Below, one piece after another: positions 28,633-64,000 of a DNA stretch of 64,000 nucleotides. The notes beneath the pieces are model-generated. The model made no database searches and was not told the origin of the DNA. It worked only from the letters and a program-made list of their open reading frames with translations. The stretch's first letter is position 1. Every line of letters starts with the position of its first letter. A program made the position numbers and the translations under genes. Origin of the DNA: Poseidonia sp. (GTDB taxonomy: Archaea; Thermoplasmatota; Poseidoniia; Poseidoniales; Poseidoniaceae). The stretch covers positions 69,042 through 133,041 of the forward strand of contig CBFIDD010000004.1 of the NCBI GenBank assembly GCA_965661285.1. Direction: 5' to 3'.

Positions 28633-28708
28633 GCTCCTCACTCACCCGGAGGTGATTGAGGAATGACCATGAACATGCCGATGCGGCAACGATAGGGGTT
28701 TGGCCTGC

Positions 28709-28831: not shown

Positions 28832-28870
28832 GTTTCAACCCAGCAAGCGGTGCTTCATCAAGTGAACGCT

Positions 28871-44415: not shown

Positions 44416-44512
44416 GAACCTCGGATGAACGGGTGCATCATGAACATGATGTTCATTTTTCGAACCCGCCATCGCCACAAGCATTGAGGACGGGAGGCGC
44501 ACAGCCGTAACC

Positions 44513-45313: not shown

Positions 45314-45319
45314 TGTGGC

Positions 45320-45571: not shown

Positions 45572-46136
45572 GTTCACCGAAATAGAGCGGCGGTTTCTTG
45601 TCGATGCACGAGAAGAGAAGCCGTGGCGAGAAGGGGCGGAGCGCATTGCCATCCGGCAACATTACGGTGTGGGTGACTTGTTTACCCTACAAAACGGGGC
45701 GCTCTGCCTCGGAGGGCACAGCGTATGCAGCCTTTCAGAGGACGAATTGAGATTCCTGGGGGCCGTTGAATCTTGGACCACCCGTTTACGCCAAATAAAC
45801 GAGGCGTTCATCATCTCCTACAAATCTCGAATTGCCGACGACACGGCCATTGAATTGGAATGGACGGTCGACGAGTCGATGGCGCGAATGATCCTTGCCA
45901 AAGGGCCGTTTCCATTCGTTGAAAAAATCCGGTATGTTCTTCCAGGCCCCGATGGAATTCTTTGGGAAGTGGATGAATTTGAAGGTGCACTGGCGGGTCT
46001 TGTTTTGGCCGAGGTTGAACTTCCGTCGAGTCAGACATCGGTTGTTCTACCCGCATGGGCGGGACACGAAATCACCGGTTTGGGGTCGTGGTCAAACCGC
46101 GCCCTCGCCGAAACCCTCTCAAAACGCAGCAAATGA
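45558..46136 (+). CDS. CYTH (triphosphate tunnel metalloenzyme) domain protein
   Basis: EIERRFLV, EKIRY, WEVDEF.G...GLVLAEVEL. Confidence 0.9.
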   Translation: MSVDEFTEIERRFLVDAREEKPWREGAERIAIRQHYGVGDLFTLQNGALCLGGHSVCSLSEDELRFLGAVESWTTRLRQINEAFIISYKSRIADDTAIELEWTVDESMARMILAKGPFPFVEKIRYVLPGPDGILWEVDEFEGALAGLVLAEVELPSSQTSVVLPAWAGHEITGLGSWSNRALAETLSKRSK

Positions 46137-47213
46137 GACCACGGCGTCGATGACGCGCTCCACCTCACCGTCCGTCATCTGATGAAACACGGGGATGGCC
46201 ACGAGACGATGAGCGATGGCGTCCGTCACAGCAAAGGCGTCGTGATGTTGCGGGTGGTTGGCATACACCTGTTGTCGATGGCACGGCGTGGCGTAGTACA
46301 CCCGAGTATCGATACCGGCCGTTTCCAGTGCTTGGCGAAACGGTTCGGGCTCATCCACCAGCAAACAATACTGGTGCCAAGCATGCTTCGTCCCATCGCG
46401 GATAGCGGGAGTGGCAAGTCCGTTCAACGAAGCAAAGGCTTCGTGATATTGTCGGGCAATGGCGCGGCGGCGCTCCAACCACCCCTCCAAGCGTTGGAGT
46501 TGCACACGACCGATGGAAGCAGTAACCTCGGACATACGCAGATTTGAGCCGAGTTCGTGAGATTCCAGCCGTGCATCTCGGCCGTGATTGACCAGCGCAT
46601 CCATTCGTGCAGCGAGGTCTTCTCGCTTGGTCATCATCATCCCACCCTCGCCCCCTACGGCGAGGTTTTTCGACGGGAAAAAGGAGAAACAAGCAACGTC
46701 GCCCACGCCCCCCGCTTTGATGCCCGATGCGGCCACGGCGCCGTGGGCTTGAGCTGCATCTTCGATGTAGGCGATGTCGTGGCGTTCACACCACGCAACC
46801 AGTGCATCATCGCACATTTGCCCGAACAAGTGAACGGCGATCACCGCTTTGGTTCGCGCTGTGCGCGCTGCTTCGAGTGAAGCAAAGTCGACACACCAAT
46901 GGTCAGGTTCAACATCAACGAACACCGGTGTTGCGCCAACGAGCGATACGCAGGTTGCCGTCGCGATGTAGGTCAGCGAGGGAACGAGGACCTCGTCGCC
47001 GGGCCCAATATCCAACAGCCGCAGCGCACCCCAAAGCGCAACAGAACCGCTCTGGCAGGGCGTGCCTTGAACGGCTCCACAGTATTGGGAAAATTCGTGC
47101 CCGAACGCTTTGCCTTGGGGCCCTTTGACCCAGTGCAGGGAGTCGAGGGTGCTGAGTGCAGCTGTGCGCATGTCGTCGTCCCAAGATGGGCGAGCCATGG
47201 GAATACGTTCCAT
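46119..47213 (-). CDS. DegT/DnrJ/EryC1/StrS aminotransferase
   Basis: IGPGDEVLVP, VHLFGQ, IEDAAQAHGA, FSFFPSKNL, GEGGM. Confidence 0.93.
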   Translation of the reverse strand: MERIPMARPSWDDDMRTAALSTLDSLHWVKGPQGKAFGHEFSQYCGAVQGTPCQSGSVALWGALRLLDIGPGDEVLVPSLTYIATATCVSLVGATPVFVDVEPDHWCVDFASLEAARTARTKAVIAVHLFGQMCDDALVAWCERHDIAYIEDAAQAHGAVAASGIKAGGVGDVACFSFFPSKNLAVGGEGGMMMTKREDLAARMDALVNHGRDARLESHELGSNLRMSEVTASIGRVQLQRLEGWLERRRAIARQYHEAFASLNGLATPAIRDGTKHAWHQYCLLVDEPEPFRQALETAGIDTRVYYATPCHRQQVYANHPQHHDAFAVTDAIAHRLVAIPVFHQMTDGEVERVIDAVVSFAAF

Positions 47214-47304
47214 GCTCCGGCGTGTCGCTTCTCCTCCTTGAGTGTGCGTTTTGCCCACCGTGCTCGTCGCGCCTTTGAAGACCCCCAACCGTGTTCGGCC
47301 TCCC

Positions 47305-49773: not shown

Positions 49774-49789
49774 ACCAGAAGGGCGTACT

Positions 49790-50320
49790 GTGGCTGAACG
49801 GCTTGAAGAACCGGTCTACGAAGTCGTGAGTTCTCACGGCGATTTTGAGGTGCGACGGTACGCTCCCACGGTGCAGGCACGCGTCCAAACCGCTGGGCGG
49901 GACGGCGGGGCAGCCTCCGGTGGTTTTCGGCGTATCGCTGGCTATATTTTCGGCGGAAACAGCGACCGAACCTCCATCGCAATGACAGCCCCGGTCCACA
50001 TGTGGGAAGGGGAAGATTCGGGGTGGATGGCCTTCACGATGCCGTCGGCCTACGCACTTGAGACGCTCCCGACACCCAACGACGCGGGTGTTCGCCTCCA
50101 TCCAACGTCCGCTGCTACGATGGCTGTGGCCCGGTTCAGCGGCCGCACGACGCCTAAGAAAACGGCACGAGTTGAGAATGAGTTGCGCGCCGCGATTGAG
50201 CGAGAAGGCTACGTAGCGGTGGGGCCGGCGGTGCTGGCCGTGTACGAGAACCCGTGGACAACGCTCCCGTTCATGCGCCGGAACGAACTCCACATCGAAG
50301 TTCGTGAATTCAATGCTTGA
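49790..50320 (+). CDS. SOUL heme-binding family protein
   Basis: EEPVYEV...FEVRRY, GFRRIAGYIFGGN, IAMTAPV, PFMRRNE. Confidence 0.92.
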   Translation: MAERLEEPVYEVVSSHGDFEVRRYAPTVQARVQTAGRDGGAASGGFRRIAGYIFGGNSDRTSIAMTAPVHMWEGEDSGWMAFTMPSAYALETLPTPNDAGVRLHPTSAATMAVARFSGRTTPKKTARVENELRAAIEREGYVAVGPAVLAVYENPWTTLPFMRRNELHIEVREFNA

Positions 50321-50358
50321 CCTGATTGTGCTTATCAACCAGCGACCGCTGAATCGCC

Positions 50359-51045
50359 ATGAGCCCCATGGACGACCACGCTTTCATCCCGTTGCAGTGG
50401 GCCGAACGGACGCCAAAGGACATGCTTGCGCTCGCCGAGGCGAATTACGCCGAACTGAGGGGGCGCCGCACGACCCGCCATTTTTCGTCTCGAGACGTGG
50501 ATCGTCGCCTCATCGAATTGGCCATTTTGTCCGGCTCAACGGCACCCAACGGCGCGCATCTCCAGCCGTGGACCTGGGTCGCCATCCGCAGCGAGGAGTT
50601 GCAGGCAAAACTTCGCGATGCGGCTGAGGCCGAAGAGCGGAAGACGTACAGCGAACGCATGCCTGAAGCATGGTCGGAAGTGCTGGCGCCGCTCGGCACG
50701 GACGCCGTCAAAGCCCACCTCACGGACGCACCCTGGGTCGTGGTGCTTTTCAAGCAAAAGAAGCGACAGCGGGACAACGGCGAGTGGGGGCCGACCTACT
50801 ACACCGTTGAATCGTGCGGCATCGCCGCCGGGATGTTCATCCAGGCCGTTCATCACATGGGCCTGGTGACCCTCACGCACACGCCTTCACCGATGGGGTT
50901 CCTGCGGGAACTTCTGGGTCGCCCCAAGCACGAGGAAGCCATGCTCGTCATGCCCGTGGGCTATCCCGCCGATGATGCTGAAGTTCCCGACATTCACCGA
51001 AAAGCGCTGGATGAAGTCGCCATCTTCTTCGACGAGCAGGCTTGA
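50359..51045 (+). CDS. Nitroreductase family, iodotyrosine deiodinase-like
   Basis: RRTTRHFS, TAPNGAHLQPW, EAEERKTY, LAPLGT, VTLTHTPSPM, PVGYP, RKALDE. Confidence 0.8.
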   Translation: MSPMDDHAFIPLQWAERTPKDMLALAEANYAELRGRRTTRHFSSRDVDRRLIELAILSGSTAPNGAHLQPWTWVAIRSEELQAKLRDAAEAEERKTYSERMPEAWSEVLAPLGTDAVKAHLTDAPWVVVLFKQKKRQRDNGEWGPTYYTVESCGIAAGMFIQAVHHMGLVTLTHTPSPMGFLRELLGRPKHEEAMLVMPVGYPADDAEVPDIHRKALDEVAIFFDEQA

Positions 51046-51060
51046 GGAAAGGTCGCGGTG

Positions 51061-51068
51061 TTGATATA
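51061..51068 (+). promoter_or_regulatory. TATA-like box for tRNA-Leu
   Basis: TTGATATA about 25 nt upstream of the tRNA. Confidence 0.5.
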
Positions 51069-51092
51069 CGCGAGGGCAGAGCGAGGGTCGGC

Positions 51093-51176
51093 GCAGGAGT
51101 CGCCCAGCTTGGTCAAAGGCGCTGGGATGAGGTCCCAGTCCGTAACGGTTCGCAGGTTCGAATCCTGCCTCCTGCA
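51093..51176 (+). tRNA. tRNA-Leu (GAG)
   Basis: Acceptor GCAGGAG/CTCCTGC, anticodon stem CTGGG/CCCAG around GAG, long variable arm, GGTTCGAATCC. Confidence 0.95.
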
Positions 51177-51278
51177 CTCTTCGCGATGAACATCAGCGCA
51201 GGACAGGATGAAATCGCAGTCCGTAGCGGTTCGCAGGTTGGAACGCTGCCCTCTGTACGCTTCGTGATGAACATCTGC
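51125..51278 (+). repeat. Degenerate tandem duplication (81-bp period) of the tRNA-Leu 3' half plus trailer
   Basis: 51125-51197 versus 51206-51278 share GGATGA, CAGTCCGTA.CGGTTCGCAGGTT.GAA and CTTCG.GATGAACATC.GC. Confidence 0.88.
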
Positions 51279-51391
51279 CTAAGGCGAGAAGACGGACGCG
51301 CACCTCTTCTCTATACCACCCTATACTCCTCAAAATTCCATGACGAGGATTCAAAAAGGGAAGAAAAAGCAAGACATTTGGGGATGGTCTC

Positions 51392-52132
51392 TTGAGCAAT
51401 GAAGACCGAGGAATTTTGATCGCCGTCGAAGGCATGGACGGCAGTGGAAAATCCACGCAGGCCATGCTCCTGTTCAACTGGATACATGCCCTCGGCCTTC
51501 CCGTCCACCACACCGAATGGAACTCCAGCCCCGTTGTCGCAGCAGCAACCAAGGTCGGAAAAGATACCAAGCGGTTGAAACCGTTGACCTTCCATCTCAT
51601 TCACGCCGCTGATTTCGCAGACCGATGGAGCAAACAAATTGAGCCCATGCTCGAGGTGGGTGGCATCGTCATTTGCGACCGATACAAGTTTACTGCGATG
51701 GCTCGTGATGGGGCGCGAGGCGTTGAGAGAACCACCATTGAGGGAAATTATTCCTATGCGCGAGAGCCTGACATTACCCTGTATTTTGATATCCCGCCCG
51801 AGGTGGGTTACGACCGAATCGTGACGGGCCGACCAACGCTGAAGTTTTACGAGGCCGGACTCGACATGGGGTGGACGTTTGACCCGTTCGAATCCTACAA
51901 AATTCTCCAAGGAAAAATCAAGGACGTCTATGACGGGTTGGTCAGCGAGGAACGTATTGTCCGAGTGGATGCCATGGGGACGGTTGCCGAGGTTCAAACT
52001 CGGGTTCGTGCACTGATTTCCGAACACATCGACTTCAGCAGCATTGACCCCATTGATGAAAACGACCGGACCGCCGAAATGATTCGTATGTCATCGTTTG
52101 ACTGGGGTGCGCTTGAGGAGGACGAAGTATGA
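51392..52132 (+). CDS. Thymidylate-kinase-like protein; candidate PPK3 catalytic subunit
   Basis: Intact P-loop EGMDGSGKST, TEWNSS, HAADFADR, ICDRY, KFYEAGLD. Confidence 0.8.
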   Translation: MSNEDRGILIAVEGMDGSGKSTQAMLLFNWIHALGLPVHHTEWNSSPVVAAATKVGKDTKRLKPLTFHLIHAADFADRWSKQIEPMLEVGGIVICDRYKFTAMARDGARGVERTTIEGNYSYAREPDITLYFDIPPEVGYDRIVTGRPTLKFYEAGLDMGWTFDPFESYKILQGKIKDVYDGLVSEERIVRVDAMGTVAEVQTRVRALISEHIDFSSIDPIDENDRTAEMIRMSSFDWGALEEDEV

Positions 52133-52800
52133 CAACCGAAGGCAAGCTCATCGTGATCGAAGGACCCGACCACGTCGGCCGCTCCATGCACACTCGTTTG
52201 CTGAGTGAGCGACTCAAAGCTCATGGCGTCGCCGTTTCCATCGTCGGTCTCGCCCGCTCAACGCTGTTAGCAGGCCTCATCAAGAGTTCGAACACGGCGC
52301 TGCATCAACTGAATTGGAGGACACGAGCCTTGCTTTACGCAACCGACCTTCACGACCAGTACATCCACCAAATCCAACCCCTTCTGGCGGCCGGTTTCGT
52401 CGTCATCGCCGACCGCTATACGATGACACCGCTGATTCGAGAATCCATTCGCGGCGGCGACGAAGACTGGATTCGTGGTTTGTACAGCGACCTACCTCAA
52501 CCCGATGTAACCGTGGTGCTCCAAGCCGGTGGTCGCCGCCTGCTCAACCGCATGATGTACAACGAATCGCTAACCAAACTCAACCACTACGAAGCCGGTG
52601 CCGATATGGCCCTCTCGCCCTCCATCACCCGATCGTTTTTGGAATACCAAAAACTCCTTCGAAAGGCCTTCATGGACAAGGCGGACCAAAGCGGCTATCC
52701 CATCATTCACACACGCGAGAAAGTCGAGGATGTTCACGCAGCGATTTGGACGCACGTCAAACCGTGCGTGGCTGACATGCTCCAATCCATCAAGAAATGA
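52129..52800 (+). CDS. Thymidylate-kinase-like paralog with degenerate P-loop; candidate PPK3 partner subunit
   Basis: EGPDHVGRS (Lys to Arg), LYATDLHDQ, IADRY, HYEAGAD; ATGA-coupled to the upstream gene. Confidence 0.8.
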   Translation: MTTEGKLIVIEGPDHVGRSMHTRLLSERLKAHGVAVSIVGLARSTLLAGLIKSSNTALHQLNWRTRALLYATDLHDQYIHQIQPLLAAGFVVIADRYTMTPLIRESIRGGDEDWIRGLYSDLPQPDVTVVLQAGGRRLLNRMMYNESLTKLNHYEAGADMALSPSITRSFLEYQKLLRKAFMDKADQSGYPIIHTREKVEDVHAAIWTHVKPCVADMLQSIKK

Positions 52801-53245
52801 GCGACGACAACGGTATTCTCAACTGCGGGATTTCAACATCAATGCAATGTTTTGATGACTTGGGCTTCATAAGAAGACTGTTCGTGGCCATCTGCACCAC
52901 CAACGCCTTGCTGACGGATTTCGCAGGAGCAGGGGGCCACGCCTCCACTGCAATGCGTTCATCGTCCTGATAGTCAAACACGAGGGCGGGTACGCGCTTC
53001 AATCCCAAACGGAGGCTGGCTTGATGCCGGTGATGGCCGTCGAGTATCGTCATGGTTTTTCGGTCAACAAGCAACGGCTTGTGAAAGAAACCGTTGCGTT
53101 GAATTTTTTCAGTCATCTCCTCAACGCGCCAGGGGAGGGTTTGTTCATGAGGCCGCAGCCGACCGACATCCACAAATTCCCACGACATGGAAGCCAGTGG
53201 GAGAAGGCCGTTGATAGCCCTTCGGTTTGCCGGTGGTGCCATCAT
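52790..53245 (-). CDS. Stand-alone ParB/Srx N-terminal domain protein
   Basis: LRPHEQ, PLLVD, ILDGHHR, RVPA; no HTH; ATGA overlap with the glycosyltransferase (alternative start 53188). Confidence 0.8.
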   Translation of the reverse strand: MMAPPANRRAINGLLPLASMSWEFVDVGRLRPHEQTLPWRVEEMTEKIQRNGFFHKPLLVDRKTMTILDGHHRHQASLRLGLKRVPALVFDYQDDERIAVEAWPPAPAKSVSKALVVQMATNSLLMKPKSSKHCIDVEIPQLRIPLSSLIS

Positions 53246-54366
53246 CCGCCGGCGGCCAATTCAAGACGGTGGTGAGGTGCGTCAACGCTCGGCTGATGGT
53301 CGCGAAGTTGGTTCAAAAACGAGCAAATAATCTCTACAGCTTGTTGGCAGCCGTTCTGTATGATTGGGCGGGGCCCGGGCGCTTTCAGCCGCTGAAGGAC
53401 CTCGTCGAGTTGAGCGGTGGACGTTGAACGAGGATGAACGACTTCAACATGTGGAAAGGTGTTGGTCGCCAGCGCACCGTTGATTTCCTGTTCGACTTGC
53501 CCGGGTTCCGGGAAACAAAGTGAAGGGAGACCGAGACAGCCGACCTCGCCGAGCAGTTGCGTACCAGCGGTTTGAACAATCCAATCCGCAGTCACCAAAT
53601 CTTCGATGAATCCATCGTTGGAAATGGGTCGAACCTCCACGTTTGCAGGTACCTCGTCGGGGTAGTGCCCGTAGAGTTTGAGCATCAAACCGTGTGATTC
53701 CGCATGCGAAGCAAGGGCAGGCAGATGGTGCAGCACGCTGTGACGGAGATATGCGATGGCGTGGGTGCCTGCCGGGCGCCATGAATCCATGGTAAACTCA
53801 GGGCGAAGCATCGGGCCGAGGAGATGTGCAGATGGTTTGTTGGCCTCCAAATTGAAGCCTTTTGAGACGAGACTGAGGTCGGGGCGGGGAGCAAAGACAC
53901 GACACATGATTTTGATTGGAAGGAGTTTCAATCGCTGCCTTCGATTCAGGAGATGCTTCAATTTCGCATCGATTGCAAATCGTTGAGAATTAAAGGAAAT
54001 TAACGGCACACCGAGGCGGCGTGCAACACCTGCAAAGGTGGGTTCAAAATCGGTGATCAAGGCGTCTGGGCCCCATGTGCGAAGCTGTTCAATGGCGGCC
54101 TTTCGTCGTTGACGATGTCCGAGAAAAAAACGCAGAGATCCCAAGCCCGTACGGAGATAGGACACACGATTTCGCACGATGACAAACCTTGGTGTTTCAA
54201 GATGGTGCACCGCTTCTTCGCCAAAACGTTCTCGAAGAAGGTCAATAGCATCACCGCACGTGAAAAACATCACTTCGTGCCCTTGGGCGATGAGCCCATC
54301 GGCGAGTGTGAGGGCTCGCGTGGTGTGACCTCGGCCCTCGCCTGCAAGCGCGTAAGCGATCTTCAA
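53242..54366 (-). CDS. GT-B glycosyltransferase (MJ1255/VC2487, GT28-like)
   Basis: KIAYALAGEGRGHTTR, PDALITDFEP, GPMLR, TAGTQLLGE, PGQVEQEING; TTG start overlapping the upstream stop. Confidence 0.85.
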   Translation of the reverse strand: MKIAYALAGEGRGHTTRALTLADGLIAQGHEVMFFTCGDAIDLLRERFGEEAVHHLETPRFVIVRNRVSYLRTGLGSLRFFLGHRQRRKAAIEQLRTWGPDALITDFEPTFAGVARRLGVPLISFNSQRFAIDAKLKHLLNRRQRLKLLPIKIMCRVFAPRPDLSLVSKGFNLEANKPSAHLLGPMLRPEFTMDSWRPAGTHAIAYLRHSVLHHLPALASHAESHGLMLKLYGHYPDEVPANVEVRPISNDGFIEDLVTADWIVQTAGTQLLGEVGCLGLPSLCFPEPGQVEQEINGALATNTFPHVEVVHPRSTSTAQLDEVLQRLKAPGPRPIIQNGCQQAVEIICSFLNQLRDHQPSVDAPHHRLELAAGG

Positions 54367-55217
54367 GCCAAGGCCTCCATGAGCCTTGATGAAGCATTCT
54401 CGAGCGCCAACGGGGGTTCCACCTCTGCCAGTCGCTGCGCTGCGCGGGTTCGCAAGGCCTGAATGGTGGACGTCGATGGAGCGTAGTGGAGAATGCCCAT
54501 CGTGCCGTCCATGGCTTCCGTTGTGGCGGTACAGGATTCCACCCAATCGCCGTCGTTCCAGTACTCAATCCCGTTGATGGTTCGAAATTCGGCACGATGA
54601 ATATGGCCACAGACGACCCCATTATAGCCTGCTCGTTGGGCGGCCTCGGTCACGGTTTCAGCGAACCTTCGGTAGGTTTTGCTGCTCTTTTGCAGTGCCC
54701 GCCTCGCAGCCGCAGCCAACGACCACGGTCGCATCCCCAAGCGATGGCGTACCCAAGCGACGGGGCGATTTAATTTCATCAGAAACTGACAGGCGATGTG
54801 CCCGAGATGGCACAACATTTTGCTGTGGCGCATGAACAAATCAAACTCATCGCCGTGAATCACCCACAAACGACGACCGTCTGCCGTGGTGTGCACTGCG
54901 TCTCGTTGGACCGAAATCCCATTGATGGAGGCATTGGCCCAAGCTCGAAAACTGTCGTCGTGGTTTCCAGGGATGTAAATCACATTGGTGCCGCGTTCGG
55001 CCTTCTGCATCAGGTTCCGGAGAATGTTGTCGCAGTCTTCGTTCCACGACCATTTGCGCCCCAAAACCCACTGGTCGATGATGTCGCCGACAAGATAGAT
55101 CGTTTCGGCGTCGTGGGTCTCAAGAAAAGCAAGCAGTTCAGCGGATTTGACGCCGTTAAGCCCAAGATGCCAGTCAGAGAGGAAGAGCGTCCGGTAATGT
55201 TCGGTCGAAACGTCCAG
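54363..55217 (-). CDS. PlcP/LpxH-like calcineurin-fold metallophosphoesterase
   Basis: In-frame SDWHLG and LVGDIID upstream of the track start, then PGNHD, IHGDEFD, VCGHIH, NDGDWVES; start taken as CTG 55217. Confidence 0.82.
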   Translation of the reverse strand: MDVSTEHYRTLFLSDWHLGLNGVKSAELLAFLETHDAETIYLVGDIIDQWVLGRKWSWNEDCDNILRNLMQKAERGTNVIYIPGNHDDSFRAWANASINGISVQRDAVHTTADGRRLWVIHGDEFDLFMRHSKMLCHLGHIACQFLMKLNRPVAWVRHRLGMRPWSLAAAARRALQKSSKTYRRFAETVTEAAQRAGYNGVVCGHIHRAEFRTINGIEYWNDGDWVESCTATTEAMDGTMGILHYAPSTSTIQALRTRAAQRLAEVEPPLALENASSRLMEALA

Positions 55218-55300
55218 ATGCTCCCCTCAACTCGCAGAGGGTTCAGAAGGCAATAGTGTCGTCGGAGGAATATTGTGTATGCCTATAGAGAGATATGGAT

Positions 55301-56482
55301 TCAACCGAAACGACCTGAGACATACCGAGCGGTTAATTCCTCTTTCGGATCGCCAAAAATCTTGGCCGTCTTGTCAAATTCAATCAAGCGACCGAGGTAC
55401 ATGAAGCCCGTGTAGTCGCTGACACGCTGAGCCTGTGACATCGAGTGGGTGACGATCACGACGGTGAAGTGCTTTTTCAGTTCAAGAATAAGTTCCTCGA
55501 TTTTTGCCGTAGCGATGGGGTCCAAAGCGGAACACGGCTCGTCCATCAAAATCACCTCTGGTTCAACTGCGATCGTTCGCGCAATGCACAGGCGCTGCTG
55601 TTGGCCGCCCGAAAGACTGGTGCCCAGCTCGTGGAGCCGATCGTTCACTTCCTCCCAAATCGCCGCTCGTTTCAGCGACTCCTCGACAATCCGGTCAAGT
55701 TCGCGCCGGCTCGGCGTGTAGTGAAGTCGAACCCCGTAGGCCACGTTGTCGTAGATGGATTTTGGAAACGGGTTGGGCTTTTGGAACACCATCCCAACAC
55801 GGCGACGGATGGTCACCAAATCAGCACCGCGCCCCATTATTTCCTCACCATCAAGTTCAATCGACCCGTCGATTTTGCAGATTGGAATAAGGTCGTTCAT
55901 CCGATTCAAGCATCGCAAAAGCGTGGATTTACCGCAACCAGACGGTCCAATCAACGCCGTGACAGCGTTGCGCTGGAACGGAATGGATACGTTGTAAATC
56001 GCCTGGGCGCTACCGTAGTGCAAATCCATGTTTTTGATCCACATATGGGGGTCGCCGTCGATGTCCAGTTGGTCGGTGGAGTCAGGGATAACATCGTCAC
56101 CTCCATGTTCGGCTTCATCGACGAGTGGGGCGTCTGCTGCTGCGTCGGAATCGGTTACTGACTCGGTGGAATCTTGCGACTGTTCGGCCTCGGATTCATC
56201 CTCCGTAGCGTCCCCGGCGCCTTCGTCGGCCGAGGATGCCTTCAACTCGTCCATCATCGTCTTGATGAGTGCGGATTCGGAGGAGGCGTTCTCCCCGTCA
56301 TCGGCCGACAGTGACGTGAGCACGCTCATGGCTTCTGCATGACCGATGCCGTCCTTGCCATCGAACGCCTGTTCGAGCACCTCTTTCCGTTGTTCTTCGA
56401 TATTCTCAACCGCGCCATCACCTTCAATGAGGCGGTCGATCATCGTGTTCAATTGTTCCAAGGATACGCTGTTGTTCGTCAT
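55301..56482 (-). CDS. pstB: Phosphate ABC transporter ATPase with acidic N-terminal extension
   Basis: [52 protein letters not shown]; ATG 56482 overlaps the pstA stop. Confidence 0.95.
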
Positions 56483-59400
56483 GTCTTCGAATACCTCCTG
56501 AAGTGGGCGCGGAGAAGGATAGCTGCTGAATTGACGACGACCAGGGTGCCAAGCAAGACCAATGAGGCCCCTGCCGCAGCGACTTTGAAACCGATGGCCG
56601 GCATGTCGGTCCAACGGTACACTTGCACGGGAAGGACCGTGTAGAAGCCACGGTCGTTGGAGTCTGGGCCGACGTACTCTGAGGGGTCCGAAGAGAAGGG
56701 TCCCCGGTCCGCCCAAAGCGGTATGTTTTGGAGGTAGGGCTCAATGCCAGGGAACCATGCGAAAAGACCGTCCAGTGAAGGCGTGACTTGGTAGGATACA
56801 TAGAAGAAAGCATCCGGTTCGGTGAACACCGATGCGACGGCTCCGACCAAAATGAGTGGCGCAGCCTCGCCCATAATGCGGGACATGGCGAGGATGGTCC
56901 CTGTCATCATCCCGGGCATGGCGTGAGGAAGAACGTGGTCTTTGGTCACTTGCCATTTCGTGCAACCCAAACCAAAGGCGCCGTTTCGCAAGGAGGGTGG
57001 CACGGCTCGAAGAGCCTCTTGAGAAGAGATGACAATGGTTGGCATGGCCATGGTGGCCATGGTCATCCCGGCCGTCATGACGGTTCCGCCAAGGCCCAAT
57101 CCAATACCACGATCGGTCAAGAACATGGCGAGCCCGAACAGACCGAAGACAATGGCTGGGACACCAGCGAGGTTCGTGATGAGGGCTTGGATGGTCCGGC
57201 GCAATCGGTTGTTTGGAGCGTATTCCTCCAACCAAATAGCGGCACCGATGGAGAGCGGTATGGCGAACAGCATCGTGTAGCCCACCACGTAGACACTGCC
57301 CCAAAACGCTGCACGCAGGCCGGCCTTGTAGGGTTCGGACGACGTGAAGTCAGACCAAACAAACGGGATGTGAATGGACATTGGAATGGAGACAAGCGCA
57401 ATCGTCAACGCCACGAGGCTGGCGGTGATCCATCCTTGACGACCTTTGACCACCAATTTCAATCGGTCAAACTGGATGTTCTCCGTTCTGGTCAACTGCA
57501 AGCCAGCGAGCACCAATCGTTTGATTCCGGACATGATCATCAGCAAGGTGACGGCGCCGATGAGCCATCCTTCAACGAGCACCCAGTGAAGCGCGATGTA
57601 GATCATGAGGCCACTGAACAACAGCAGGCCAAGATCGACGAGCCCGTCCGATCGAGGGACGCGGGTCTCCGGGCGAATGCCAAGAATCTCTGTGACCGAG
57701 ACAAGGAGCGCAATCCCTGACATGACCATCACGGCGCCGCCGATGGTGAAGGTAAACGGTATCAGCAGTGTTTGTTGGTTTTCAGCAAAGGTGCTGAAGA
57801 AGAGGGAGGCGCTGAGCACGAAGAAACCAAGACGGAACCCAATGCCAACCAAGCGGCCGATGAGTTCCGTAGCAAACGAACACCACGACCACGGCGTCAT
57901 GACATCCTCGTCGTGCTCATCGCTTCCGAGTGACAAAAACATCGCGCGCAATCGCATCAAAAGTGCATTTGGCTTTCGCATGATGAGGAGCATCCCGACC
58001 AAGCTCAGCATGCTGAGCATTGGAAGCACCGGATCTCGTTCTTCGAACATGGCCTCGCCAGACTCGAATCGCTCAGGAGCTGCGCATTTTTCCAACCACA
58101 TAAGTTGGTCGAGATAGCGGACCTGATCGCACCATGCTTGGGCTGTCGTGGGAGGCGTGTCGGTCATGGCTCGGGCTTGTTCGCAATCAAACGCTGCAAA
58201 GGAAGGGTCGTTGGCTTTGTAATTCTCTCCGCACTTGAGAGTCGCAAGTTCGCTGGCATGCGTCCACAACTCAGGGACGTCCGCCAGTGATTCTGCACCC
58301 GCAAACGCGTCTTCAGCAGAATGACCTTGCCCGTCGATGAGGTTGGGTACACCGTCTCCGTCGATATCACGGTCGTTGACGCCGTCGTGCACGCCGTCCT
58401 CGTTTTCGTCGTTCGCTGAGACCCACGCCGAATAACTCAACGGTTCAGAAGGATCTGCATACCGGCCTTCACCCGGGCAATGCTCTGGATGGCCTTGCAC
58501 AGGATTCTCATCGTTGTCTGCGTCAATGTCGTCATCACAAACGTCGATGATGCCGTCGTTGTCAAGGTCCTGGTCGTTCACAAATCGGAACTGAAACCAA
58601 TCGGCAGGACTGCCAAGAGCAAACCCTCCGATTTCATTGTACGATGTTTCGCGTGCATCACCTGGTGGCCCTTCGGTTTGAAGGTATGTTACGGTGTAGT
58701 TCATCGTGTGGCTGATGAAGAGCCAGTTGGTGCTCAAGCCGCCCGAGGGTTGCAATTCAACATGGTGCTGGTCAAAGTCACCGTCGACGATGGAGACGAA
58801 GGCCGCTGATTCCCCTCCGCTGGTGATGGCGACGGTCAGTTCAATCGTACGAGAACGACCTGAATCAGCCGTGGTTTCGATGGAATAGCCGTTCTCGTTC
58901 GTGAATTCGCCAATGACCGCAGCACCCACCTGTCCCGATGTCAAAATATATGCCGATGTTTCGGCTTTGGTACAGAATTCTGGAACAAACGATTCAATGC
59001 TTTCCTGTGGTTTGAGGAGGGCCTCAGGAACATCAGCGGGAGAGACCGGCGTCCATGAACGGGTGGTTTTGTTGTACATGCTGGCTTCCTCAATGGTTGA
59101 GAACGAAGCAATGCCGGTCGCCGTTCGGTTCAGCCACAAATCGCCATCGCCTCGGAACAGCGGTTCAACGGGCGTGTAGTGAATCCAAAGTTTGCCGTCC
59201 GCAAACGCCTCTGGATGCGGAGCGATGAAGTCGAGCACGTTGGCGAGGAAGGCGTCGTTGTTCGCTGACTCCCACCTGAGGCCTTTCCAGACCCATCGGC
59301 TTCCGTCATCGCTATCGACCCAAAAATCACCCATCCCCGGTGTTGGCGCAGCAGACCGGTTGAAGATGTTGATACGCGTTGATGAGCCGGTGTCGTAGGC

Positions 59401-59985
59401 GAGACCAGCTTGTTCCTCACCCGGGAGAAGGTCAAAGATGGACCACGGTTCGACCGGTTTGTACGTTGTCGGTGCCAAACCGGCATCGCACAACGCTCGC
59501 TCAAGGTCTTCCTCCAAGTCAAACGTGCTCTCTCCAGACAACGATACAAATCGTTCTCCATCATCGTTAAACGCCTCAAACGAGGTCTCAACCCACGACG
59601 CTTCGATGGTCACGTTGGAGCGTGATTGACGCAAATCATCCTCTGCCCACGAAGGGTTGTAAGTTTCCGCCTTCCACGAAAGTTGCGTTTGTGCAACCGT
59701 CTTGGTGGGATAGCGAACACCGTCAACCTCAATTTCTTCCTCGGGGACAAACGCCTCTTCGGAGATTTGTGTAAGCAAGGTGATGAGGGCGATACCGCAC
59801 ATCACGGCGATGGAAACAAAGACGCCCTTGCCTATTTTTGCAGACATGTAGCGTCGGGAAAGTGAGCGTTTTGGCAGGTGAATGGTGCCAAAGAGGCTCG
59901 GCCGATCGCTGGTAGCGTTTTCCTTCTTCGTGTCATCCTTCGCCTCGTCCTGAGGCTCGAATACTTGCTCGGTGGATTCGCTCAA
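56479..59985 (-). CDS. pstA: Phosphate ABC permease PstA with very large insertion
   Basis: C-terminal [46 protein letters not shown]; 1168 aa. Confidence 0.9.
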
Positions 59986-62177
59986 TCGTACGCCTCCCGA
60001 AAGCGAGTCATGATCTTGTGGCCGACCATGTTGAGCCCAAGCGTGATGGCAAAGAGATAGAGCCCTACAGCGAACAGGGAATAGTACGGCGTGGTACCAA
60101 TGGGAAGTTCGCCACCGATACGTTGAGCGATGTAGGCGGTCATGGTTTGAGCCGACCGGAACATGTTGTCCGAATAGGTCGCCAAGGTCCCAACCGAGAG
60201 GGTGACCGCCATGGTCTCACCAATCGCTCGGGAAAGAGCGAGGATGATCGAGGCGAGGATGCCAGAAAGAGCGGAGGGCATGGTGACACGTGCCGTGGTT
60301 TCCGTGGTGGTGGCTCCAAGAGCGTAGGAGGCTTGTCGAAGGCTATCGGGAACAGCACGAAGGGCATCTTCGGACAGGGAAGCGATCAGTGGTGTGATCA
60401 TGATGCCGACCACAATGGCCCCGTTGAGCGGGTTGAACAATTGTGGTTCTTCTGCAATCCACCCCCGCTCCAAAAAGACCGTTCCAAGGTCGACCACCAA
60501 AGGAGCGATGACGACGAAGGCAAAGAACCCGTAAACGACAGAGGGGATGCCGGCCAACAGTTCCAAAATGGGTTTCACGATGTTGGCCGTCCTCGGACTG
60601 GCGTATTCGGAGAGGAACACCGCGGTACCCAAGCCGATGGGGATGGCGACGACCAAGGCGCCCAAAGCGACTTGGAGCGTGGTTTGCAACAACGAATTCA
60701 CACCCATGTGAAGGTCGGAGGTCACCGTGACGGTTTCACCAGCGGAGCGCACATCTGTTTTCCACCATGTTTGGGTGAAGAACTCGCCCAAAGACCCGTT
60801 CACACGAGCGACGACATCGAAATACATCAGGGCAAATGTGACGATGACGACCAGGTAAAGAATGGCCTTCGTATCACCATCGATGGTGGCGAAACGGGTG
60901 GTTCCAGCTTGGTTTCGTGAGTCTGACATAGCGGTTGTCAAGGCGATGAACGAGAGTGCCAGCGCAATGGTGTGCCCGGTTTGAACAGAATAAAACTCGA
61001 AGATAACGAGGAACAGGGAGAGTGCAGCGATACAAGCAATCGATACCGGAATTTTCCGGTCGAGCCGCCAACCAAAAGCAACCAGAATCAAACACACCAC
61101 ACAGAGAAGAATCAACACGCTCGCCTGCGGCGGAGCAATCAGGGACATGAACCCAATGATGGTCAGCACCAAGGCGTTCAATCGAAGAGCAGGCGTCCAG
61201 CGATCAATGCGTTCAACCGGCATGGATTGGAGCCACTGAGGACAGAGAAGCGTTGCGATCACAATCAAAAGCGTGAGAAGGCCCAAAAACAGGCCCACCG
61301 CATCAGAGTTTGGATTGTAGATGTCCTTATCGTATGGATTCGGGATTCCGTCGCCGTCAATGTCTTCGTCAAGGTAATTGGGGATGTTATCCCCGTCAAT
61401 GTCGTTGTCGAGGAGGGTCCCTGCGCCGTCAACGGCATCGTTCGCAACGCCGTCTTCATCAACGTCTTCCTGAGCAGTGTCGTTCCAAACCCAGAGCGTG
61501 ACCCACCATTCACGGGCGAGTTCTGGATTCTGTTCATGAAGGGTGAGGGCCCCCTCGTTTTCGTAAATCAAACTTAGCGGAACTTTCGGATAGGCTTCAT
61601 CCCACATGGTGGGATTCGCCTCAAAGTATTCCGCAAGATAGGTACGATCCGAGTCTAACGCAGGGCCTGTCGTACTGGTGCCGTCCGATTGAGAGAACGT
61701 TGAGCCTACGCGATCACTGTTATCAGTGTAGGTCTGCGTGTCCTCGTCCCATTCAAAACGGTCGATGAACGGTTCAGCCAGAACGACCTCATGGTCCATG
61801 TTCCAATCAACAATGCAGAACGCATCGAGCCACAGCGGGTCTGAAAGTTTGCCGTCATCATAGATGGCGGCCTCTTTGATTCCAGCTTTGACATCCTCGT
61901 GCCAGTCTTGTGGCGGTTTGTAAGCGTCAACGCCGCATCCAAATCCTCTGTAGAACTTGGAACCAGACTCGAAAAGGACGAACACGATGCCGGCTGTGAT
62001 CATGATCACAGTGGCAGCCAAGGCAAAGAGAACAACTCCAGGAGCAGCCTCCTCCACACGCCCACGCCAGCGCATGGACCCCGCACCACCAGATTTGGAT
62101 CGTCGGGGACCATTGGAAGCGGCGGCGGATGTTGCCGTACTCTGAGATTCCTTCGGACTGTCTTCGACAGACATCAC
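59982..62177 (-). CDS. pstC: Phosphate ABC permease PstC with large insertion
   Basis: TAVFLSEYA, KPILELLAGIPSVVYGFF, SEDALRAVP, SRAIGETMAV; 731 aa. Confidence 0.92.
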   Translation of the reverse strand: MMSVEDSPKESQSTATSAAASNGPRRSKSGGAGSMRWRGRVEEAAPGVVLFALAATVIMITAGIVFVLFESGSKFYRGFGCGVDAYKPPQDWHEDVKAGIKEAAIYDDGKLSDPLWLDAFCIVDWNMDHEVVLAEPFIDRFEWDEDTQTYTDNSDRVGSTFSQSDGTSTTGPALDSDRTYLAEYFEANPTMWDEAYPKVPLSLIYENEGALTLHEQNPELAREWWVTLWVWNDTAQEDVDEDGVANDAVDGAGTLLDNDIDGDNIPNYLDEDIDGDGIPNPYDKDIYNPNSDAVGLFLGLLTLLIVIATLLCPQWLQSMPVERIDRWTPALRLNALVLTIIGFMSLIAPPQASVLILLCVVCLILVAFGWRLDRKIPVSIACIAALSLFLVIFEFYSVQTGHTIALALSFIALTTAMSDSRNQAGTTRFATIDGDTKAILYLVVIVTFALMYFDVVARVNGSLGEFFTQTWWKTDVRSAGETVTVTSDLHMGVNSLLQTTLQVALGALVVAIPIGLGTAVFLSEYASPRTANIVKPILELLAGIPSVVYGFFAFVVIAPLVVDLGTVFLERGWIAEEPQLFNPLNGAIVVGIMITPLIASLSEDALRAVPDSLRQASYALGATTTETTARVTMPSALSGILASIILALSRAIGETMAVTLSVGTLATYSDNMFRSAQTMTAYIAQRIGGELPIGTTPYYSLFAVGLYLFAITLGLNMVGHKIMTRFREAYD

Positions 62178-62349
62178 TCATCCTCCAACCGTGTTTGGTC
62201 AATGACCCGAACACTCCATCCAGAACCGGGAATCTCACAGGCTGCCACGTTGCATCCCCTCATCACGCCGTATCGGCGGGTGAAGGGAGGCCACGGGACA
62301 TTTTGTGATTGCTATATAGTCCGTTGAAAGGGCGCGGGCCCAAGAAGCA

Positions 62350-62373
62350 GACGGCCGGGCGACCCCGGCCGTC
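62350..62373 (-). terminator. Perfect 10-bp GC-rich hairpin after pstS (terminator or mRNA-stability element)
   Basis: GACGGCCGGG-CGAC-CCCGGCCGTC, 28 nt past the pstS stop. Confidence 0.6.
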
Positions 62374-62401
62374 CACAGTTGGGTATTGACCGATGTCGGG
62401 T

Positions 62402-64000
62402 TCAGTACACGCCTTCTGCAGCAATGCGGCGGTGCATCTCTTGCCAGGTGGCGTCGTCGAGTGGGACGTAGCCGACCTCAGAGATCACTGCCGTACCGTC
62501 GCCCGAGAACGCCCAGTGGAGGAAGGAGGACACAACGTCCCACTTGTCGTTGTTCACGTTCATGAACAATGGGCGAGAGAGCGGCGAGTACGAGCCGTCT
62601 CGAACAGTATTGGCGTTGGGTGCAACGGCCTCTTCAGGAGCATCACCAGCACCGTGGGTCATGTTGTCCACGATAGGTGCAGCACTGAGTGTCGCCTGGT
62701 TCTCGGCGTAGTAAGCAAAGCCAAAGTAGCCGATTGCAGCTTCATCACCGGTGATGGTGTTCACCAAGACGTTGTCGTCAGAGGACTGTGTGCCGGTGCG
62801 GAAACCAGCAGTTGCCTCATCCAAGACAGCCTCAAAGAAGTACTCATAGGTACCAGAGGCGGCGTCAGGGTAAGCGAGCACGATCTCAGCATCTGCGCAT
62901 CCAGCGTCAAGTTCCGACCACTTGTGGGTCGTGTCGTCGCCGTCGCCGTTGGGCGTGATCGAGGACATGTCGAGACCGGCAGCCGTCAATTCAGCGCTGG
63001 TTTCAGCAGAGAACATCCAGCGCAGTTGACCGACGCTCAGACCACCAAGGGTGTTCACGCAGGTCTCAGCAGCGCTTCCTTTCTTCATGACCACGGACAA
63101 TCCGTCAACGGCCACAACAAGTTGAGTCACGCTGATGGATGTGTCGCCGACCAAGCAGTCGAGCTGTCCGTTTTCGTCAACCAAACCTTCGGTGGCCTTC
63201 CAGTCTCGGGACATGTCGCCGATGTCGACGGGTGTTCCCTTGGCGGAGTTGGCGCACACACGGCCGGCACCGGAGGAGGATCCACCGGATTCAACTGTGA
63301 TGGTGGTGTCTGGGCAAAGCGTGTTGTCTTGGAAGTCTTCAGCCCACGCCTCAGCAAGCGGGAGGACCGTTGAGGAACCTGCGATGGAGATGCTCTTTGC
63401 ACCGCCACAGAACTCCGCATCAAACCACTCGCTGTTGCCAGCGGCCGTCATGCCGGCGAGGTAGAGCCATCGGCTCATGAACATCTGAGCTTCCTGGTTG
63501 TCGTTGAGACTCACATAGCCAACTTCACCAACCTTGGACTGGCCGGTTTCGGTAAACAGACCAAAGTGCATGAACGGAAGGGTGTCTTCCAGCGTCGTTG
63601 GGTCAACGAGGAGGTTCATGAACAGTGGGCGGGACAGTGGGTTGTACGAACCATCTCGAACGGTGGTTGCATCGGGAGCCACGAAGTCGCCATTGCTGTT
63701 CTTGACGGGCAATGCAGTCAAGGTTGCCAGGTTCTCCTGATAGTAAGCGTAGCCGAAGTAGCCAACAGCTGCTTCGTCGCCGGTCACCGTGTTCACGAGC
63801 ACGTTGTCGTCCGAGGATTGCTGGCCTGCACGGAAGCCTTGTTCGGCTTCGTGAAGGATTTCCTCATAGAAATACTCGTAGGTACCGGATGCGGCGTCTG
63901 GGTAAGCCAGAGCAATTTCAGCGTCGGGGCAGGAGGGGTCAAGCTCGGACCACTTGTGCGTGGCATCGTCGCTGTCGCCGTTGGGCGTGACAGCGGACAT
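62402..64000 (-). CDS. pstS: Phosphate-binding protein PstS with tandem domains, 5' partial
   Basis: IAGSSTVLP, GGSSSG, MSR, SGTYEYF, IGYFG.AYY, Y.PLSRPLF; internal repeat with 1032-nt period. Confidence 0.93.
   Translation of the reverse strand: MSAVTPNGDSDDATHKWSELDPSCPDAEIALAYPDAASGTYEYFYEEILHEAEQGFRAGQQSSDDNVLVNTVTGDEAAVGYFGYAYYQENLATLTALPVKNSNGDFVAPDATTVRDGSYNPLSRPLFMNLLVDPTTLEDTLPFMHFGLFTETGQSKVGEVGYVSLNDNQEAQMFMSRWLYLAGMTAAGNSEWFDAEFCGGAKSISIAGSSTVLPLAEAWAEDFQDNTLCPDTTITVESGGSSSGAGRVCANSAKGTPVDIGDMSRDWKATEGLVDENGQLDCLVGDTSISVTQLVVAVDGLSVVMKKGSAAETCVNTLGGLSVGQLRWMFSAETSAELTAAGLDMSSITPNGDGDDTTHKWSELDAGCADAEIVLAYPDAASGTYEYFFEAVLDEATAGFRTGTQSSDDNVLVNTITGDEAAIGYFGFAYYAENQATLSAAPIVDNMTHGAGDAPEEAVAPNANTVRDGSYSPLSRPLFMNVNNDKWDVVSSFLHWAFSGDGTAVISEVGYVPLDDATWQEMHRRIAAEGVY

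Follow-up and report, generated by a model that had tools for sequence, protein, structure and literature searches.

Here, we describe a 16.5-kb block of phosphorus-related genes in an archaeon of the genus Poseidonia (order Poseidoniales; marine group IIa, MGIIa). We conclude that it is probably one version of a flexible, replacement-type phosphorus-economy island that occupies a fixed slot between a tRNA-Leu(GAG) gene and a gene for a GIDE-domain protein. In other members of the genus, the same slot contains different sets of phosphate genes, unrelated genes, or no genes, and these versions do not follow the phylogeny of the flanking genes. The version studied here joins a Pst phosphate importer, a putative PlcP-like phospholipase C with a glycosyltransferase (GT), and a candidate PPK3-type polyphosphate kinase. 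Prochlorococcus and SAR11 carry phosphate-stress islands, in which accessory phosphorus-acquisition genes vary with ocean phosphate; we take these islands to differ from the Poseidonia block in their bacterial hosts and in their gene sets. Poseidoniales, which are still uncultured, rank among the most abundant surface-ocean archaea.

The block lies on contig C4 of a 1.98-Mb assembly (G000; 8 contigs, GC 0.57, 93% complete). The window that we analyzed is a stretch of 64,000 nucleotides, C4:69042-133041, and coordinates are in window numbering unless a contig (C1, C3, or C4) is named; relatives are labeled G and fetched loci L. A preliminary description had proposed a tRNA-anchored phosphate-starvation island here, an archaeal equivalent of the bacterial ones, comprising a tRNA-Leu duplicate, a tmk-like pair, a ParB/GT/phosphoesterase operon, and pstBACS. 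All of these items are present (ARAGORN, blastn, Pfam, and NCBIfam), and the host, a Poseidonia genome, is indeed archaeal; a TFIIB gene in the locus of one relative agrees with this. Two of the listed open reading frames were given new start codons, that of the phosphoesterase (CTG 55217) and that of pstB (ATG 56482). The features are as follows (aa, amino acids).

51093..51177, plus strand: tRNA-Leu(GAG), conserved left border of the variable slot (ARAGORN)
51206..51275, plus strand: degenerate second copy, an 81-bp unit of tRNA 3' half and trailer (blastn, Tandem Repeats Finder)
51392..52132, plus strand: tmk-like 1 (tmk1), candidate catalytic PPK3 subunit, 246 aa (Pfam Thymidylate_kin, E 1.8e-23)
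52129..52800, plus strand: tmk-like 2 (tmk2), candidate regulatory PPK3 subunit, 223 aa, 4-bp overlap with tmk-like 1 (Pfam Thymidylate_kin, E 1.5e-18)
52790..53245, minus strand: small ParB/Srx-fold protein, SerK N-domain-like, 151 aa (Pfam ParB_N; N-terminal part of NCBIfam SerK)
53242..54366, minus strand: GT-B glycosyltransferase of the TIGR00661/MJ1255 family, 374 aa (Pfam PF13528, Glyco_trans_1_3, E 1.8e-40)
54363..55217, minus strand: LpxH/PlcP-like metallophosphoesterase, 284 aa, CTG start after Shine-Dalgarno (SD)-like GAGGGGA (Pfam Metallophos, Metallophos_2)
55301..56482, minus strand: pstB, 393 aa (TIGR00972, 387.5 bits)
56479..59985, minus strand: pstA, 1168 aa (TIGR00974, 205.2 bits)
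59982..62177, minus strand: pstC, 731 aa (TIGR02138, 244.2 bits)
62402..64000 and on to window-equivalent 65896, minus strand: pstS, C-terminal 532 of 1164 aa in the window (TIGR02136, 258.1 bits)

The minus-strand genes form a co-directional chain that runs from pstS, which begins outside the window, through pstC, pstA, pstB, and the metallophosphoesterase to the GT and the ParB_N protein. Four of the junctions (pstC/pstA, pstA/pstB, phosphoesterase/GT, and GT/ParB) are 4-bp overlaps, and a gap of 83 bp separates pstB from the phosphoesterase gene on the same strand. The pstS gene reaches 1.9 kb past the window, and its outer part contains two masked runs of N. Divergent from it, beyond the window, are genes for an AbrB/MazE-PhoU protein and a second PhoU protein. 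The block ends after these two regulators, 3.7 kb past the window, where the far boundary had been expected to lie outside; there it meets the conserved GIDE-domain gene, which is followed by an unknown gene, SDR, FUR, and katG. Several companions had been suggested for the flanks. Two PhoU genes were indeed found, whereas no phoX, phoD, ppx, integrase, or second att copy lies beside the block, and no phoX, phoD, ppx, or integrase lies within it. The genome has one PhoX-like gene, on C3, and no PhoD was found in it.

The variable slot and its contents

The block is accessory and lies between fixed, conserved flanks. When a 20-kb DNA query and a query of the downstream region were compared with 59 same-genus genomes, the flanks were matched in 57/59 and 55/59 of them, and the middle in only a few. 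The contents of the slot were mapped by tblastn of 19 G000 proteins on 20 loci from 18 same-genus genomes. The left flank in the mapped loci keeps the order HerA-SOUL-nitroreductase-tRNA-Leu and the right flank the order GIDE-unknown-SDR-FUR-katG. Of the 20 relative loci scanned, 16 have the tRNA-Leu gene at the border; the remaining four stop short of it.

Between the tRNA-Leu and GIDE genes, we find six content states, of which four are based on phosphate genes, one is empty, and one consists of unrelated genes. The slot is empty (210 bp) in G059. It holds a 714-aa fusion of PHO4/PiT and PhoU_div together with a PhoU regulator in G008, G044, G056, G074, and G002 (Pfam). A compact pst operon takes its place in G019, G015, and G061, with partial loci in G013 and G017, and has a different gene order (phoU-pstB-pstA-pstC, AbrB-PhoU, and a divergent single-domain pstS). 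In G058, the tmk pair is combined with a compact pst. The full block is found in G003, G055, G066, and G045 as well as in locus L030, and DNA synteny indicates that G021 and G073 likewise carry it. The slot of G020 (L022:9436-13329) encodes a 1297-aa bacterial-TSP3-repeat protein and a class-I glutamine amidotransferase, and no phosphate genes. The preliminary description had regarded the block as an accessory unit whose presence should differ at this tRNA gene; it does, since the block is not core and syntenic in all relatives.

The distribution of the transporters shows the same alternation. PiT is present in 45 of 59 same-genus relatives and was not found in G000. PstB occurs in 24/59 relatives; seven of these proteins are 95-99% identical to the PstB of G000 and fifteen are ~75% identical, the higher values being those among full blocks and the lower those for compact pst.

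We find that the slot versions do not follow the phylogeny of the flanking genes, as judged from a maximum-likelihood tree of HerA and nitroreductase (1071 columns, 18 genomes), which is a tree of two genes and not a genome tree. The six content states need at least 8 changes on it, where the minimum possible is 5, and the full state alone needs 4. Strongly supported sisters differ in content: the empty G059 pairs with G058, G008 with its PiT version groups with the full blocks of G003 and L030, and the full block of G045 groups with the compact pst of G019 and G013. The same position, conserved flanks, and differing content of equivalent function are what defines a replacement island, and all of these are observed here.

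Parts of the block also occur by themselves. The tmk-ParB-GT-phosphoesterase part of G052 lies on another contig, beside a pstS fragment. Directly after its phosphoesterase gene is a gene for a secreted-looking protein of 1185 aa with a "choice-of-anchor I" domain, collagen repeats, and DUF7151 (L024:11449-15006); this protein is possibly a further phosphorus-scavenging component of another island version. In other Poseidoniaceae, the phosphoesterase, GT, and tmk genes are inverted beside the nitroreductase gene. In family f3 (G035, G129, G253, and G401; L106, L111, L112, and L119), PiT, AbrB-PhoU, in some cases pst, and the tmk pair form a cluster ~1.5-2.5 kb from tRNA-Val(CAC). Phosphate clusters beside tRNA genes may thus be a wider habit. 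Other contigs of G003 hold a second tmk1 (73%) by a second GT (43%) and a second pstB (85%) (C22:1585-3433 and C5:6994-7734), and modules can therefore occur twice per genome. The proposal that uptake, storage, and sparing of phosphate form one accessory unit therefore stands for the version in G000, which has the full block; across relatives, its modules also turn up separately, which makes the block a mosaic.

Uptake, probable lipid-remodeling, and candidate polyphosphate modules

All four Pst subunits exceed the NCBIfam equivalog or subfamily cut-offs, as expected of a Pst importer, and all four are oversized (55301-64000; also L006:402-3896). The pstB start codon, ATG 56482, overlaps the pstA stop codon (ATGA) and gives PstB an acidic N-terminal extension of 146 aa. 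Hydropathy divides PstA into a first transmembrane (TM) segment, an acidic ectodomain of ~580 aa, extra TM segments, and the PstA core at residues 870-1163. Only PstA proteins of 894-1284 aa were found to carry this ectodomain, and 18 of 19 matches have PF00528; the two matches with a source name come from metagenome-assembled genomes (MAGs) of Ca. Poseidoniaceae and Ca. Thermoplasmatota. PstC has an ectodomain of ~230 aa with Asp-rich TSP3-like repeats. The PstA and PstC ectodomains and the PstB tail match no Pfam family at E 1, except for a weak TSP_3 match in PstC. PstS is a lipoprotein with a lipobox at its N-terminus and three PBP_like_2 phosphate-binding stretches (E 5.5e-61). According to the available part of an earlier survey, the phosphate-binding subunit is confined to some subclades of marine group II (MGII) (Tully, PMC6336850). 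In the island, this module would supply high-affinity uptake through enlarged subunits, presumably under the control of the two divergent PhoU-domain regulators, one of them with an AbrB/MazE domain.

The phosphoesterase had been listed from a TTG codon, an open reading frame that lacks catalytic motifs I and II, and the frame is open for 54 codons farther upstream. We place the start at CTG 55217, behind the SD-like GAGGGGA; no ATG, GTG, or TTG precedes the first catalytic motifs, and all five metallophosphoesterase motifs (DxH, GD, GNH(D/E), H, and GHxH) are readable in frame from this position. The aligned position in nine species (window 55217 and loci L016, L018, L024, L025, L026, L030, L034, and L045) is CTG in five, TTG in three, and GTG in one, always 4-5 nt after a conserved TGAGGGGAG. 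Because CTG recurs in several species, it is not a sequencing error. The pattern suggests an archaeal gene in which CTG has repeatedly served as the start codon, preceded by a strong SD-like site.

The only named relatives of the phosphoesterase are LpxH proteins, and the matches are weak (24.1 bits in NCBIfam; E 1.6e-6 in the PDB). A scan of species-representative genomes gave 291 relatives. The best non-archaeal homologs are 42-50% identical over ~240-280 aa and come from Erythrobacteraceae, Sphingomonadaceae, Burkholderiaceae, and a contig titled Ca. Fonsibacter lacus. Inspection of two bacterial loci showed the gene orders PhoX-phosphoesterase-GT4-Ppx (L050) and phosphoesterase-GT4 (L078); GT4 is directly downstream in both. 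The available text of Sebastian et al. (PMC4796936) describes the plcP-agt arrangement in SAR11 and Erythrobacter and ties it to the synthesis of monoglucosyl diacylglycerol (MGDG) and glucuronic acid diacylglycerol (GADG) under phosphorus limitation. It is this homology to genes in proteobacterial plcP-agt type loci, rather than to an experimentally characterized PlcP sequence, on which the PlcP assignment rests, and it agrees with the earlier label "PlcP + GT."

Among 400 Poseidoniales genomes, 22 carry the phosphoesterase, and 16 of the 22 also carry tmk1. The GT adjoins the phosphoesterase in every archaeal locus with at least ~0.5 kb of sequence on that side. This downstream partner always belongs to PF13528/TIGR00661 and never to GT4. 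The AlphaFold model of the GT (pLDDT 90.1) has a GT-B fold, and its nearest Foldseek matches are GT1 macrolide/UGT enzymes with lipophilic acceptors and MurG. A PlcP would be expected to have a gene for the synthesis of non-phosphorus lipids next door, and the GT, which overlaps the phosphoesterase gene by 4 bp on its downstream side, is the candidate (PF13528, not Agt).

An unrooted tree of the phosphoesterase places 26 of 27 archaeal rows on one side, where a 3.6-kb contig titled Hyphomicrobiales joins them, and the bacteria on the other. No donor of the PlcP-like gene can be inferred, because the tree is unrooted, bacterial sampling was limited to the 80 best loci, and the branch of L121 is long. 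The contig titled Hyphomicrobiales also carries a giant pstA and pstB beside its archaeal-type phosphoesterase, and in the tree the phosphoesterases of the contig titled Ca. Fonsibacter lacus and of one titled Burkholderiaceae are identical. The public MAGs concerned likely contain binning errors (L033, L049, and L050).

What is known of Poseidoniales lipids bears on a possible substrate. As far as the source was available, Poseidoniales have no sn-glycerol-1-phosphate (G1P) dehydrogenase and do have an sn-glycerol-3-phosphate (G3P) dehydrogenase (Rinke et al., PMC6461757), and known archaeal lipids were undetected where MGII dominate (Besseling et al., PMC6962369). The genome of G000 encodes three PlsC-type acyltransferase domains and one GGGPS. 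Because G3P rather than G1P dehydrogenase is found and PlsC-type domains are present, a G3P-based substrate for a bacterial-type phospholipase C is plausible. The phosphoesterase and GT are thus probably a PlcP-like lipid-remodeling pair, to judge from homology and gene order. The phospholipase C would remove the phosphate head group of membrane glycerophospholipids, and the GT-B enzyme would add a sugar to the remaining diradylglycerol, thereby sparing phosphorus.

The tmk pair resembles PPK3, a heteromer of two dTMP-kinase paralogs described in 2026 (PMC12995831). In the part of that report available, PPK3 genomes retain a canonical dTMP kinase, PPK1 and PPK2 are absent from most of them, and PPX, PstC, or PstS are frequent gene neighbors. 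Here, too, two adjacent dTMP-kinase paralogs form a putative operon. The best PDB match of tmk1 is the Sulfolobus tokodaii cPPK3 homolog (2plr/5h70; E 2.1e-50), compared with 1.5e-13 for the best canonical dTMP kinase, and tmk2 has the same best match (E 4.9e-23; next, 5.5e-8); this relatedness rests on PDB matches rather than on a tree with Saci_2019 and Saci_2020. Both proteins score just below the NCBIfam dTMP kinase equivalog cut-off (82.6 and 76.9 vs 83.25 bits), and a third, canonical Thymidylate_kin gene at C3:86942 is a better Pfam match than the pair (109.7 bits). The earlier designation "PPK3-like" was therefore apt. No PPK2 (PF03976), PPK1 (PF02503), or PPX was detected in the 93%-complete genome. 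A PPK2 identity for the pair itself was rejected, with no PF03976 match on its proteins (E 0.01) or in the genome.

Conservation extends across the order. Homologs of tmk1 (E at most 1e-30) occur in 64 of 400 sampled Poseidoniales genomes (27/199 in family f1, 1/2 in f2, and 36/199 in f3). In all 14 further loci fetched across the order, tmk2 follows tmk1, and PiT, pst, or both lie beside the pair in nine. The Walker A motif GSGKST and DR[YF] of tmk1 are invariant in 19/19 orthologs. In tmk2, the Walker A lysine is replaced by arginine (R18) and DR[YF] (D95-R96) is kept, again in 19/19, and a catalytically dead partner would be the simplest reading. A co-fold of tmk1 with tmk2 weakly supports a complex: it scored 0.60 against 0.00 for the best of three controls. 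Of 157 solved complexes, 116 reach the mark for passing, as do 2 of 215 mismatched pairs; scores of 0.60 or less belong to 18 of the 157 solved complexes and to both passing mismatched pairs. The runs agreed in at least 94% of contacts, with partner pLDDT of at least 82. Solved dTMP kinase dimer structures exist, and likeness to them may therefore explain the pass. We regard the pair as a PPK3-type candidate polyphosphate kinase and the only candidate polyphosphate enzyme in the genome. It would act as a two-subunit kinase that interconverts polyphosphate and ADP with ATP, for storage or buffering.

A small ParB-like protein appears to belong with this pair. Its residues 15-116, and only these, match PDB 1vk1 (E 2.1e-15) and 5x0b (E 1e-13), that is, the N-terminal ParB/Srx-fold domain of SerK. 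The ESM Atlas returned only generic "transcriptional regulator / ParB_N" archaeal clusters for it. The gene is translationally coupled to the GT in G000. In six genomes (G025, G120, G150, G214, G172, and G095), it faces tmk2 convergently, including cases with a distant or absent GT and phosphoesterase, and it is missing from the phosphoesterase-GT-tmk loci of other Poseidoniaceae. We read it as a nucleotide-binding companion that would travel with the PPK3 pair.

Two upstream regions in the block share a short element. The sequence TCTCTATA occurs at 51308-51315 and 55277-55284 (C4:120349 and C4:124325), 70-95 nt upstream of tmk1 and of the phosphoesterase gene. A longer form of TCTCTATA is kept in 6/6 tmk1 upstream regions and CTCTATA in 4/4 phosphoesterase upstream regions. 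The genome has 12 occurrences of TCTCTATA, compared with ~33 expected, and no other CTCTATA site lies before an obvious phosphate gene, the sites being unannotated. The element may be a promoter feature common to both genes, or no more than a TATA box.

Elsewhere in the window, and unrelated to the phosphate block, GC drops to 0.47-0.52 at 25001-29000, compared with ~0.57 in the rest of the window.

Proposed exchange of the island and alternative explanations

The tRNA end of the slot carries a repeat. Positions 51217-51275 repeat the 3' half of the tRNA and its trailer over 59 bp at 85% identity (blastn), and Tandem Repeats Finder reports an 81-bp unit, present 1.9 times at 51125-51275 with 82% matches. 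Similar proximal partial copies occur in G003, G055, G020, and G045. Contigs of three of four public runs contain one extra 81-bp unit (51211 is joined back to 51160 through 31 nt of other sequence), and such variation in unit number is compatible with slippage or unequal crossing-over. A further copy of the repeat was found neither on C4 nor at the far border of any relative scanned. Of the proposed tRNA anchoring, what holds is that the tRNA-Leu gene borders the slot; the copy is a proximal tandem unit and not an att site bounding the block.

The stretch is recovered from public data. Of 24 listed public runs, 20 contain a 10-kb stretch of it or part thereof, 19 (from 10 studies) with at least half of the sampled words, and no RNA run is among the holders. 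Contigs of four public runs over 44001-64000, an interval that excludes the far border, cover 30/30 bins in 4/4 runs, and the assemblies break at the tRNA; as these are assembled contigs, their depth cannot rank parts of the block.

An integrative mobile element, or the remnant of one, could have entered the 3' end of tRNA-Leu by site-specific recombination and left the partial copy as an att scar. The block abuts the tRNA gene, the degenerate copy of the tRNA 3' half follows, and the relatives G003, G055, G045, and G020 have similar copies, in G055 as far as 665 bp from the tRNA. However, a tRNA-integrated element should have an integrase and direct repeats at both ends, and neither is seen. 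No integrase, transposase, or other mobility gene is among the Pfam matches of the block or of the 14 kb beyond it, and the sole Phage_integrase match in the genome, a tyrosine recombinase, is on C1. The copy is tandem, varies in number between public assemblies, and is absent from genomes with PiT, compact pst, or an empty slot. The GC of the block (0.54-0.57) is that of the contig (mean 0.569). With no recombinase in or near the block and a repeat that is proximal and tandem only, we rejected an integrative element, which we consider very unlikely. Because there is neither an integrase nor a flanking repeat, a flexible island exchanged by recombination is suggested instead. Homologous recombination in the conserved flanks would fit these observations best; flexible genomic islands of marine bacteria have been proposed to be exchanged in this way, as described in the available part of PMC10734472. 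A different history, in which an ancestral phosphate regulon locus of Poseidoniales decayed by independent deletions and was not exchanged, would account for the clustering of PiT, pst, PhoU regulators, and the tmk pair in both families of the order, for a divergence of the block from relatives that equals that of the flanks, and for the grouping of the archaeal PlcP-like proteins on one side of the tree (26/27 rows). Decay should leave subsets, whereas the versions are alternatives: the PiT fusion replaces pst, and the compact pst has another gene order (phoU by pstB, pstS divergent) and a PstB only ~75% identical, compared with 95-99% among full blocks. Very close flanks carry differing versions, and the phosphoesterase, GT, and tmk genes are inverted beside the nitroreductase gene in other Poseidoniaceae. 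We therefore think such a history unlikely.

The function of the block could also be read differently. The phosphoesterase and GT might serve envelope or glycan synthesis, for example with an LpxH-like nucleotide-sugar diphosphatase, while the tmk pair would be a nucleotide kinase and the proximity of pst incidental. LpxH is the only named relative of the phosphoesterase, the GT family TIGR00661 is uncharacterized, and the tmk-like proteins fall only just under the dTMP kinase cut-off. LpxH acts in lipid A synthesis, a pathway not known in archaea. The nearest homologs of the phosphoesterase lie instead in plcP-agt type loci, one of them between PhoX and Ppx; tmk1 accompanies the phosphoesterase in 16 of its 22 carriers in the order; the modules are repeatedly found beside pst, PiT, and PhoU genes in several genera; and a better-scoring canonical tmk is present elsewhere in the genome. 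An envelope function is thus rather improbable.

Several points also weigh against a flexible phosphorus-economy island as set out above. The genes of the flank tree adjoin the island and may themselves have recombined, and the relatives are incomplete MAGs, one per species, such that the comparison is between species. Nucleotide identity to relatives is similar for the island (73-82%) and the flanks (73-79%), which gives no indication of a recent transfer. Because the modules are found apart in other genera, "one unit" is true for the G000 version only. The best solved relative of the phosphoesterase by sequence is LpxH (E 1.6e-6). The GT is not of the bacterial Agt (GT4) family, and its Foldseek matches are generic GT-B proteins that include no specific lipid GT; the membrane lipids of MGII are themselves unknown (PMC6962369). 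The arginine of the DRX motif is replaced in PPK3 regulatory subunits, according to the available part of PMC12995831; tmk2 retains it (D95-R96 in 19/19) and therefore lacks this mark of a regulatory subunit, having lost the Walker A lysine instead. Finally, no PPX was found in the genome, and the polyphosphate-releasing partner is therefore missing.

On balance, we favor the flexible island, which would be induced by phosphate starvation. A more far-reaching reading is tentative, and we hold it to be possible rather than probable. It supposes that MGII membranes are renovated by a bacterial-type PlcP and an archaeal-family GT and include PlcP-cleavable sn-glycerol-3-phosphate phospholipids and glycolipids derived from them; that a catalytic tmk-like protein, a Walker-A-dead partner, and a ParB/SerK-like protein form a three-part polyphosphate system as the only polyphosphate kinase; and that island versions are exchanged between species according to phosphate supply.

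The membrane lipids of Poseidoniales are an open problem, as no known archaeal lipids were detected where these archaea dominate (PMC6962369) and the available part of PMC6461757 reports G3P and not G1P dehydrogenase. The PlcP-like enzyme and the GT are two small, expressible proteins, and their substrate preference would reveal the phospholipid type. The tmk pair would extend the PPK3 family to a globally abundant marine order (64/400 sampled genomes). The slot versions (PiT, compact Pst, giant Pst with sparing and storage, and empty) provide a marker set for a possible sorting of archaeal populations by phosphate, for which HIMB59, SAR11, and Prochlorococcus are precedents.

Comparison with known systems

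None of the papers searched connects Poseidoniales or MGII with PlcP, phospholipase C, PPK3, or a phosphate island. For its individual modules, the block has two known counterparts. The tmk pair is similar to SaPPK3 of Sulfolobus acidocaldarius (Saci_2019/Saci_2020), as described in the available part of PMC12995831: in both, two neighboring dTMP-kinase paralogs coexist with a separate canonical dTMP kinase, neither PPK1 nor PPK2 is found in the genome, pst genes lie close by, and the nearest solved structure is that of the S. tokodaii cPPK3 homolog. Unlike in SaPPK3, the second subunit here keeps the DRX arginine and has its Walker A lysine changed to arginine (19/19), no PPX was found, a ParB/SerK-N-like gene accompanies the pair, and the lineage is Poseidoniales. 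The main text of PMC12995831, in the part available, names Nitrososphaeraceae, Sulfolobaceae, and a few bacteria, and does not name Poseidoniales; a supplement row for Poseidoniales, among the 4 of 7 mentions listed, is scored 0/0/0, with no PPK. The words ParB, LpxH, and metallophosphoesterase do not appear in the examined part of that supplement.

The phosphoesterase and GT correspond to the PlcP-Agt operon of SAR11, Erythrobacter, Phaeobacter, and rhizobia (PMC4796936, available part). Both have a cytoplasmic LpxH-like metallophosphoesterase directly upstream of a GT in a phosphate-stress context, and homologs in PlcP-Agt type loci are 42-50% identical to the Poseidonia phosphoesterase. Unlike Agt, which is a GT4 enzyme, the GT here is GT1/GT28-like (PF13528/TIGR00661). 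The host is an archaeon whose membrane lipids are unknown, and no Pho box or PhoB system applies; archaea have no mention in PMC4796936, as far as its text was available.

The closest known system for the island as a whole is the flexible phosphate island (fGIp) of the marine alphaproteobacterial order HIMB59. In the available part of its description (PMC10734472), the longest version, 18.5 kb, comprises pstSCAB-phoU, polyphosphate kinase, LpxH and RfaG-type glycosyltransferase annotations, and phosphatases; the versions do not follow phylogeny, exchange between lineages is proposed, and a correlation with phosphate is shown. To the extent of that description, both islands occupy one fixed genome position with alternative phosphorus-related versions, and in both the longest version joins pst, a polyphosphate kinase, an LpxH-like gene, and a glycosyltransferase. 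They differ in regulation, with PhoR-PhoB in HIMB59 and PhoU-domain proteins here, one of them with an AbrB/MazE domain. They also differ in their kinases, a ppk accompanied by ppx and SixA in HIMB59 and a PPK3-type candidate here. All HIMB59 versions contain pst, whereas Poseidonia also has a version with the low-affinity PiT and an empty one. For the Poseidonia island, a correlation with phosphate like that shown for HIMB59 would be a prediction. Thus, what is new relative to HIMB59 is the archaeal host, a putative PPK3-type kinase with a differently degenerated partner, a GT that is not Agt, giant Pst proteins, and the PiT and empty versions of the slot.

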